From: Escherichia coli
GTDB taxonomy: Bacteria; Pseudomonadota; Gammaproteobacteria; Enterobacterales; Enterobacteriaceae
DNA: 64,000 nt
Strand: one strand, 5' to 3'
Assembly: GCF_030013595.1 (NCBI RefSeq)
Contig: NZ_CP122768.1
The position numbers were made by a program. How positions within the stretch are numbered: position 1 is the first letter of the stretch; every line of letters begins with the position of its first letter. Shown one piece after another: positions 9,001 through 12,000 of the stretch.

Positions 9001-12000
9001 TCGCTAAAATGAACAAAAATGGCGTACCGGTAACGCTGGTCATTTCGCAGCTGGTGATTACTTCTATCGCGTTGATCATCCTCACCAATACCGGTGGCGG
9101 TAACAACATGTCCTTCCTGATCGCACTGGCGCTGACGGTGGTGATTTATCTGTGTGCTTATTTCATGCTGTTTATTGGCTACATTGTGTTGGTTCTTAAA
9201 CATCCTGACTTAAAACGCACATTTAATATCCCTGGTGGTAAAGGGGTGAAACTGGTCGTGGCTGTTGTCGGTCTGCTGACTTCAATTATGGCGTTTATTG
9301 TTTCCTTCCTGCCGCCGGATAACATCCAGGGTGACTCTACCGATATGTATGTTGAATTACTGGTCGTTAGTTTCCTGGTGGTACTTGCCCTGCCCTTTAT
9401 TCTCTATGCTGTTCATGATCGTAAAGGCAAAGGGAATACCGGCGTCACTCTGGAGCCAATCAACAGTCAGAACGCACCAAAAGGTCACTTCTTCCTGCAC
9501 CCGCGTGCACGTTCACCACACTATATTGTGATGAATGACAAGAAACACTAACCATGTCTGAATGGTTATAAGATAAGGGAGCGATAATTCATCGCTCCCT
9601 TTTTCGTGCTTGCTGTCGTATTGACTTAACCGGGATAAGTACGAGAATGAGCGCACATCTGTTTACCGGAAACCAGCACATATGGATATCTGCTCCCGAA
9701 ACGAGAAATTAGCGATTAGAAGACCAGCGATACTGGTTGCACTGGCACTTTTACTGTGTAGTTGTAAAAACACGCCTCCAGAGTCCATGGTGACACCACC
9801 AGCGGGTTCAAAGCCACCAGCCACGACGCAACAATCGTCACAACCGATGCGTGGCATCTGGCTGGCCACGGTGTCTCGCCTCGACTGGCCACCGGTTTCC
9901 TCGGTTAACATTAGTAACCCCACCAGCCGGGCCCGTGTACAACAACAGGCGATGATCGACAAACTGGATCATCTGCAACGTCTCGGCATAAACACGGTCT
10001 TTTTCCAGGTCAAGCCGGACGGTACCGCCCTGTGGCCATCAAAAATTTTGCCGTGGTCCGATCTTATGACCGGAAAGATTGGTGAAAATCCAGGTTACGA
10101 TCCGCTGCAATTTATGCTCGACGAAGCCCACAAGCGTGGGATGAAAGTACACGCCTGGTTTAACCCCTATCGTGTATCGGTTAATACGAAGCCCGGTACT
10201 ATCAGGGAACTGAATAGCACCCTGTCTCAACAACCAGCGAGCGTCTATGTGCAACACCGCGACTGGATCAGAACGTCCGGCGATCGCTTTGTCCTCGACC
10301 CGGGCATCCCTGAAGTTCAGGACTGGATCACATCAATAGTCGCGGAAGTGGTTTCCCGCTATCCGGTAGATGGCGTGCAGTTTGACGACTATTTCTATAC
10401 TGAGTCACCAGGTTCACGGCTAAATGATAACGAAACGTACCGCAAATACGGAGGCGCATTTGCGTCAAAAGCAGACTGGCGGCGCAACAATACTCAGCAG
10501 TTAATTGCGAAGGTATCGCACACCATTAAAAGCATTAAGCCGGAAGTCGAATTTGGCGTTAGCCCGGCAGGCGTGTGGCGTAACCGATCACACGATCCGC
10601 TCGGTTCCGATACCCGAGGCGCGGCAGCCTATGACGAATCCTACGCTGACACCCGTCGATGGGTGGAACAAGGATTGCTGGATTACATTGCTCCCCAAAT
10701 TTACTGGCCGTTCTCACGGAGTGCCGCACGTTATGACGTTTTGGCAAAATGGTGGGCGGATGTCGTTAAACCGACCAGGACCCGCCTGTATATCGGTATC
10801 GCCTTCTATAAAGTGGGTGAACCTTCAAAGATAGAGCCAGACTGGATGATTAACGGCGGCGTACCGGAACTGAAAAAGCAGCTCGATCTTAACGATGCTG
10901 TACCCGAAATTAGCGGCACCATCTTGTTCCGTGAGGACTATCTGAATAAACCGCAGACTCAACAAGCGGTCAGCTATCTGCAAAGTCGTTGGGGCAGTTA
11001 AATTCCCATTCTTACTTTGTAACAAGCCGGTGCTTTACCCACTGGCTTGTTACCCTCGTGAAATATCCCACTAGCAATCATGCTTACATAAGTCAAATTA
11101 ACCACACAATTAACCACACTTAGTTAAACAGCCATAATTCCCCTAATAAAAATGTATGAATATGAAAAAACATACGATATTCGCTGTCACCGAAAAATAA
11201 TTACGATGGGCTATACTCTTCTGAAGAACAGTAGCGTAGATTGAAACTGTCCTAAGTCGCTTATTTGTTTTCAGTATATCTTCATATTTCAGGAGAATAT
11301 GGTGCAGTTAGTCGATCTCGCACGTTGCGTTTCGTTTTGATTCCGTCTGCTTTTCCAGCCTTATAAGGGTGTGAATTATGGAGATGTATTTTAAAAGAAT
11401 GAAAGATGAGTGGACCGGGCTTGTCGAACAAGCAGATCCGCTCATTCGTGCTAAAGCCGCGGAAATTGCCGTTGCGCATGCCCATTATCTGAGTATTGAG
11501 TTTTACCGAATTGTCCGTATCGACCCGCATGCCGAAGAATTCTTGAGTAATGAACAAGTTGAGCGGCAGTTGAAAAGTGCGATGGAACGCTGGATTATTA
11601 ACGTGCTTTCTGCCCAGGTTGACGATGTCGAAAGGCTAATACAAATCCAGCATACCGTTGCGGAAGTGCATGCCCGCATAGGAATCCCGGTAGAAATTGT
11701 CGAGATGGGGTTTCGGGTGCTGAAAAAAATCCTCTATCCAGTCATCTTCTCTTCGGATTATTCCGCCGCAGAAAAACTTCAGGTCTACCATTTCTCTATT
11801 AACAGTATTGATATCGCGATGGAAGTGATGACCCGCGCGTTTACCTTTAGTGACAGTAGTGCCTCAAAGGAAGATGAAAACTATCGTATCTTCTCGTTAC
11901 TGGAAAACGCCGAAGAAGAAAAAGAACGGCAAATAGCCTCAATACTTTCATGGGAAATAGATATTATCTATAAAGTCCTGCTGGATTCTGATTTAGGCAG

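Follow-up and report, generated by a model that had tools for sequence, protein, structure and literature searches.

A 12-bp tandem duplication upstream of yddY-dosC-dosP in Escherichia coli, a low-copy intergenic repeat that probably arose by replication slippage

Upstream of dosC, the gene for the diguanylate cyclase DosC, the Escherichia coli strain under study carries a 12-bp unit twice in direct succession, and the doubling lies in the intergenic region that also holds the promoter. Does this duplication take part in the regulation of the downstream genes, or is it a trace of replication slippage with little or no consequence? An earlier note on this DNA had offered both possibilities, a duplicated regulator half-site and a neutral slippage product. 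Here, the repeat was examined in the 64-kb stretch of DNA that was analyzed (hereafter the window), among complete E. coli genomes, and at outgroup loci.

The repeat occupies positions 11096-11119, which read aattaaccacac aattaaccacac. Copy 1 (AATTAACCACAC, 11096..11107, plus strand) and copy 2 (likewise AATTAACCACAC, 11108..11119, plus strand) form a perfect 12-bp head-to-tail doubling, to which the bordering bases, a at 11095 and t at 11120, add nothing. TRF reported a period of 12, 2.0 copies, 100% matches, and a score of 48 for the same stretch. Because none of 300 dinucleotide-preserving shuffles of the window produced a perfect two-copy tandem with a period of at least 12, the repeat is regarded as a genuine duplication event; the earlier description of a perfect 12-bp tandem duplication is thus confirmed by the sequence, by TRF, and by the shuffles. 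The window holds one other perfect tandem, with a period of 8, which is explained by chance (~0.9 expected per shuffle). No further exact copy of the 12-mer occurs anywhere in the 64-kb window, and the unit with its flanks is found once per genome. A mobile-element remnant or dispersed repeat was rejected on this single occurrence.

The local gene order, all on the plus strand, is gadB (6460-7860), gadC (8016-9551), digH (also yddW, the gene upstream of the repeat, 9682..11001), the repeat, the promoter, yddY, dosC (11378..12760), and dosP (12785-15184), and the region is identical to that of E. coli CFSAN018748 (swine, Denmark). A hairpin with 14-nt arms that are 93% complementary lies 3′ of the digH stop codon (11019-11053). 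It is followed by a poorly conserved stretch between digH and yddY (11054..11140), which contains the repeat, is polymorphic in E. coli, and is mostly unalignable with sister Escherichia. Next comes a conserved promoter block (11141..11230, plus strand) that includes CTATACT, a sigma-S-like −10 element (11211-11217, plus strand). Between the promoter and dosC, the annotation of MG1655 has the 13-codon gene yddY (b4746), which is unannotated in the RefSeq record matching the strain under study and had been overlooked in the earlier note. The window has an ORF at 11299..11340 (plus strand) that is identical to b4746, therefore the unit is really yddY-dosC-dosP. The sigma-S-dependent yddY-dosC-dosP operon of K-12 has its genes in this order, encodes an identical YddY peptide, and shares the −10 element; it differs in having one copy of the 12-mer, as opposed to the two identical copies in the strain under study.

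Several other features of the window were observed. The longest dosP ORF (807 aa, from 12761) overlaps the stop codon of dosC, whereas the RefSeq start is at 12785 (799 aa). In strain 14EC033, the digH stop codon is TGA and not TAA (AGTTGAAC vs. AGTTAAAC; window equivalent 10999-11001), a harmless change. Compared to the gene order of K-12, the window has an extra IS100 (istA/istB) between nhoA and yddH (46573-48374 of the window, ~77475-79276 of the record). At 51500-60400, it has an added alkyl/aryl-sulfatase, an extra GGDEF-domain protein, an ISAs1 remnant, and a module of an Rhs core protein and VgrG (type VI secretion).

The repeat is not within any ORF of note. It ends 259 bp before the dosC ATG (11378), in agreement with the earlier figure of about 260 bp. 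The CTATACT element, which the earlier note had placed near the repeat, is indeed present, but 92 bp separate it from the end of the repeat, which lies upstream, so "near" was generous. From the spacing of the −10 element, a transcript start at ~11224 is expected. The dosC 5′ UTR in BL21(DE3) is 147 nt long (PMC5435950), which, when mapped onto the window, puts the start at 11231, a few bases farther downstream. Because the published 147-nt figure derives from transcript boundaries, the approximate start was taken as 11224..11231 (plus strand), and the repeat then falls at about −135 to −112. In BL21, which carries two copies of the unit, the 5′ end of the transcript is thereby located downstream of the CTATACT element. 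According to a preprint on the structure of DosP, the protein is made in stationary phase under RpoS control. Holoenzyme peaks from genomic SELEX place RpoS within or near yddW, and a heat-shock sigma factor in the yddV-yddW spacer.

The repeat was then followed through the species. Short BLAST queries were run against 5,426 complete E. coli genomes, and the intergenic region was aligned among K-12 DH1, AR_0006, ATCC 8739, EC554, and one O157:H7 strain. In this alignment, K-12 and EC554 have one copy and the other three strains have two. In the larger survey, a 72-nt one-copy query matched 1,203 records without gaps at ≥90% identity and 4,209 records solely with a gap of 12-13 nt (two or more copies). 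A 59-nt two-copy query was covered in 4,213 genomes, and a 71-nt three-copy query in three genomes (A25, DCE7, and ET729), where the units on reading are ordered CACGC, CACGC, CACAC. Accordingly, ~22% of the genomes, K-12 included, have one copy, ~78% have two, and at least three genomes (~0.06%) have three. The comparison among E. coli genomes that had been proposed as a check is therefore positive, with one, two, or three copies, and the two-copy state in all strains that the earlier note had named as part of a refutation does not exist, since ~22% carry a single copy.

In most two-copy strains, the copies are not identical (CACGC/CACAC), and copy 1 carries AATTAACCACGC; copy 2 of the window has the same sequence as the single copy of K-12. 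A 38-nt core query was exact in 117 records, making the perfect A/A doubling a minority allele, and it matched 2,842 records with one mismatch (a class that is G/A in the strains read) and 1,263 records with two mismatches, such as G/G in O157. The SNPs seen inside the unit within E. coli are CACGC, AACTAC, and AAACAC. These counts also bear on the possibility that the repeat is an artefact of sequencing or assembly. It was rejected on population data, since about 4,200 complete genomes from independent assemblies have two copies, and 117 records have the exact A/A core. In strain 65COLEC, an IS1A element has inserted precisely between copy 1 and copy 2 (window equivalent 11107/11108; 1537-2304 of its locus), with an 8-bp target duplication (CAATTAAC), and it cuts copy 1 and everything upstream off from the promoter.

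The same copy-number states are found on different backgrounds. The one-copy state occurs on two haplotypes, that of K-12 and an ATCC 8739-like haplotype in EC554, and the three-copy state likewise occurs on two different haplotypes. As the one- and three-copy alleles are each present on more than one flanking haplotype, slippage has probably recurred. The allele classes were counted from BLAST identity bands rather than on a tree, which puts the independent slippage events at a few or more. Among the 117 records with the A/A core, the flanks of the window are present in 26; RM9088 and PapM-32-1 carry A/A on another haplotype, with 13 and 10 further differences to the window, respectively, in the intergenic region. 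Distant lineages (ST131/B2, O157, BL21, and ATCC 8739) share a G/A or G/G two-copy state. Judging from this shared state, the two-copy array is probably ancestral to present-day E. coli, and the single copy of K-12 would be a later contraction.

If the repeat were a conserved cis-regulatory element, one would expect it to persist along with the promoter. Outgroup loci were searched for among genome contigs with a 41-nt degenerate pattern from the GGDEF region of DosC, and seven were returned, four from Escherichia (E. whittamii, Escherichia sp. E1V33, and two divergent records labeled E. coli), two from Citrobacter, and one from Kluyvera. E. albertii, E. fergusonii, and a reference E. coli were not returned by this pattern search, as they either lack dosC or differ in the pattern; because E. 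albertii and E. fergusonii were not returned, the polarity of the duplication rests on the four other Escherichia lineages. In all four, the synteny of digH and dosC is kept, and the DNA identity to the window is 85-87% for dosC and 85-88% for dosC and digH together. All four also share a strongly conserved block that extends from 11141 to the yddY start. The promoter block (11141-11230) is 82-90% identical to the four outgroups and the 5′ UTR (11231-11301) 89-93% identical, a conservation equal to or above that of the coding sequences. CTATACT and the following TTCAGAAG are recognizable upstream of dosC even in Citrobacter amalonaticus.

The repeat behaves differently. At 11096-11119, identity to the four outgroups is 0-33%, against 82-93% for the promoter block and 5′ UTR, which is not the pattern of a conserved cis-regulatory element. 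Three of the outgroups lack the unit, and the fourth, E69, has one diverged 12-mer (AATTATCTCCAT) that matches at 8 of 12 positions. Within E. coli, too, no other part of the spacer is as polymorphic as the surrounding stretch (11054-11140). From these comparisons, we conclude that the duplication most probably arose within the E. coli lineage and that the functional promoter appears to begin just downstream of the repeat.

The leader that follows the repeat has features of its own. The region from 11141 to 11301 is unusually strongly constrained (82-93% identity, vs. 85-88% for dosC and digH coding DNA), which suggests that it may hold regulatory elements not yet described, for instance a site for an sRNA or a protein, or a structured RNA. 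Among Escherichia species, the Shine-Dalgarno sequence and the beginning of yddY (CAGGAGAATATGGTGC) do not vary, in contrast to the peptide. YddY has 13 aa in the strain under study and in K-12, its frame shifts to ~20 aa in strains with a 5-bp deletion, such as ATCC 8739 and EC554, and in the four outgroup Escherichia it consists of three codons only (MVP*, MVR*, MVL*). Selection seems here to favor the translation of a leader ORF and not the peptide made from it. The 5-bp deletion is a second slippage-type polymorphism, an indel in an imperfect 5-bp tandem (GTTTC GTTTT, ~11328-11335), and roughly one in five of the E. coli genomes sampled have it (match span 396 or 384). The earlier view of the spacer as otherwise non-repetitive is thus right in that it has no other comparable repeat, but it passes over this imperfect, indel-polymorphic tandem. 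In the B2-type ST131 strain 4224 and in MS7163, dosC is mostly lost from the equivalent of ~11336, with a C-terminal pseudogene fragment left. The repeat, the promoter, and the start of yddY are still present in both strains, and B2-type matches reach only query positions 1-347. This loss agrees with the report that DosC is often absent (PMC5635171).

Despite this lack of conservation, the doubled unit might still act as a regulatory site within E. coli, and the candidate sites were considered in turn. In the most concrete version, the duplication would create or strengthen a site for a response regulator, PhoP in particular, and copy number would tune the induction of yddY-dosCP at low Mg2+. 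The consensus of the PhoP box is (T/G)GTTTA-N5-(T/G)GTTTA. On the minus strand of the two-copy allele, positions 11115 to 11099 read GGTTAA-TTGTG-TGGTTA, a match with two mismatches and the correct 11-bp spacing of the half-sites. The intergenic region has no equally good match elsewhere, and the G/A SNP falls into the spacer, leaving the candidate box intact in every two-copy allele. However, matches of such quality number 23 in the 64-kb window (0.36 per kb). The candidate site is also centered near −124, that is ~124 bp upstream of the transcript start and far from the usual activating positions of PhoP, and it is absent from K-12 and from sister species that retain the promoter.

The physiological evidence for PhoP does not depend on the duplication either. 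The region upstream of yddY has been reported to be PhoQ-dependent at low Mg2+, as a single-copy reporter with ~200-500 bp upstream of yddY showed PhoQ-dependent induction in K-12 (PMC11429745, preprint). The reporter strain has one copy of the unit and thus no two-half-site box; since the PhoQ dependence was measured in one-copy K-12, it needs no duplication. PhoP reportedly induces iraM, whose product stabilizes RpoS at low Mg2+ (Bougdour et al. 2008), and such a route would explain an indirect PhoQ dependence of a sigma-S promoter. Altogether, we consider a copy-number-dependent PhoP site improbable.

It is very improbable that the repeat contributes a −35 element to another sigma-70 promoter located upstream, in which TTAACC (11110-11115) would be followed by a 17-nt spacer and CATAAT (11133-11138). 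With 9 of 12 matches, this is the single promoter-like site in the consensus scan, but shuffled sequences contain 1.5 such sites on average. The −10 hexamer is polymorphic, CATAAT here vs. CATAAA in K-12, and the region is unconserved in sister species. Moreover, the −35 element is in copy 2 and abuts the fixed right flank, so that copy number would have no effect on the promoter, and the 147-nt 5′ UTR puts the transcript start ~90 bp further downstream.

An even fainter prospect is that the units are weak DnaA boxes (TTAACCACA compared to TTATCCACA / TTWTNCACA) and that the repeat offers DnaA two sites in tandem. Both units agree with the relaxed consensus at all but one position. However, one-mismatch matches number 109 in the window (1.7 per kb), the common G variant TTAACCACG brings a second mismatch, and the unit is unconserved outside E. 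coli. Scanning with an ArcA-like consensus gave no match inside the repeat, and a terminator scan of the region found none. An Rfam scan of 10900-11500 at a permissive E-value returned a single hit, the Listeria RNA rli61 (E = 0.27), which is well below the gathering score and off the repeat. Among the papers searched on the transcript start and regulator sites of dosC/yddV, none mentions the 12-mer or describes a regulator site in the digH-dosC spacer, and no regulatory element described for the operon was found to include the repeat.

The repeat was further compared with known classes of variable tandem repeats. Like VNTR loci used in MLVA, it consists of a short head-to-tail unit with strain-variable copies (1, 2, or 3), each state is present on more than one haplotype, and the copies are partly homogenized (A/A, G/G, G/A). 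It is tandem beyond chance, its alleles differ by whole units, and these differences recur on haplotypes, all of which are properties of a VNTR. Unlike typical loci of this type, it is very low-copy, with one or two copies in 99.9% of the genomes. It would thus be a poor typing marker because of its very low copy number, and no description of the dosC 12-mer as a typing marker was found in the literature. With the contingency loci of Neisseria and Haemophilus, it shares the position of a repeat tract upstream of a promoter and a copy number that varies in the population. However, the tracts of contingency loci are long, consist of short units, switch at high rates, and are located in the −35/−10 spacer or in a defined regulator site. 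The dosC repeat does not exceed three copies of its 12-nt unit, shows no sign of rapid switching, and ends 92 bp before the −10 element, in DNA that is not conserved. With one to three copies among 5,426 genomes, and a location outside any ORF, promoter spacer, or defined regulator site, it does not qualify as a contingency locus. The repeat is an ordinary low-copy intergenic VNTR, another instance of a common kind of sequence variation.

Whole-unit gains and losses together with homogenization of the copies are the pattern of slipped-strand mispairing, from which we infer replication slippage as the mechanism. The 12-bp unit would have been doubled in the E. coli lineage after its split from sister Escherichia, in an array placed between the digH terminator hairpin and the conserved sigma-S-type promoter of yddY-dosC-dosP. 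The copies would then have diverged by the G/A difference at position 11 of the unit. Occasional slipped mispairing may have contracted the array to one copy, in K-12 and others, or expanded it to three, and may also have homogenized the copies to A/A, as in the strain under study, or to G/G, as in O157. An array such as G/G/A could plausibly link the G/A and G/G forms. Since the repeat would lie ~112-135 bp upstream of the transcript start and outside the promoter block, its effect on expression is probably none or marginal. Taken together, it is very likely that the array is a low-copy intergenic mini-VNTR generated by replication slippage in unconstrained DNA, with no or a marginal effect on expression.

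Between the two alternatives raised in the earlier note, the neutral slippage product is supported, given one, two, or three copies that recur on different haplotypes. The duplicated regulator half-site is unsupported, because the unit is absent from four sister species in which the promoter and 5′ UTR are 82-93% conserved, because K-12, with one copy, is the strain in which low-Mg2+ induction of yddY was reported, and because the motif resemblances seem to occur at chance frequency. Consistently, the region upstream of yddY drives induced transcription in one-copy K-12 and thus functions without a visible need for the repeat. The predominance of two copies (~78%), distant lineages included, could stem from ancestry but also from weak selection. 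Given its non-conservation, the repeat is most likely neutral.

A functional reading can nevertheless be formulated, in which strains would naturally differ in the expression of the oxygen-sensing c-di-GMP module yddY-dosC-dosP through the copy number of the 12-mer. A change from one to two copies yields the PhoP-like direct repeat GGTTAA-N5-TGGTTA, and it moves all DNA upstream by 12 bp, a little over a helical turn, with respect to the sigma-S promoter. Either change could alter the induction at low Mg2+ or in stationary phase between K-12 and most wild strains. We regard this as quite unlikely, and an expression role is disfavored because the repeat is not conserved. If copy number did affect expression, the repeat would provide a simple case of natural variation in signaling by c-di-GMP and oxygen.

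For the biology of this locus, the repeat thus matters little. The promoter-relevant DNA appears to start at 11141, with ~20 bp between it and the repeat upstream, which can be left out of account in delimiting the conserved regulatory region. For those who use K-12 as the model for dosCP regulation, it is at most a footnote that this strain carries the minority one-copy allele, while ~78% of E. coli carry two.
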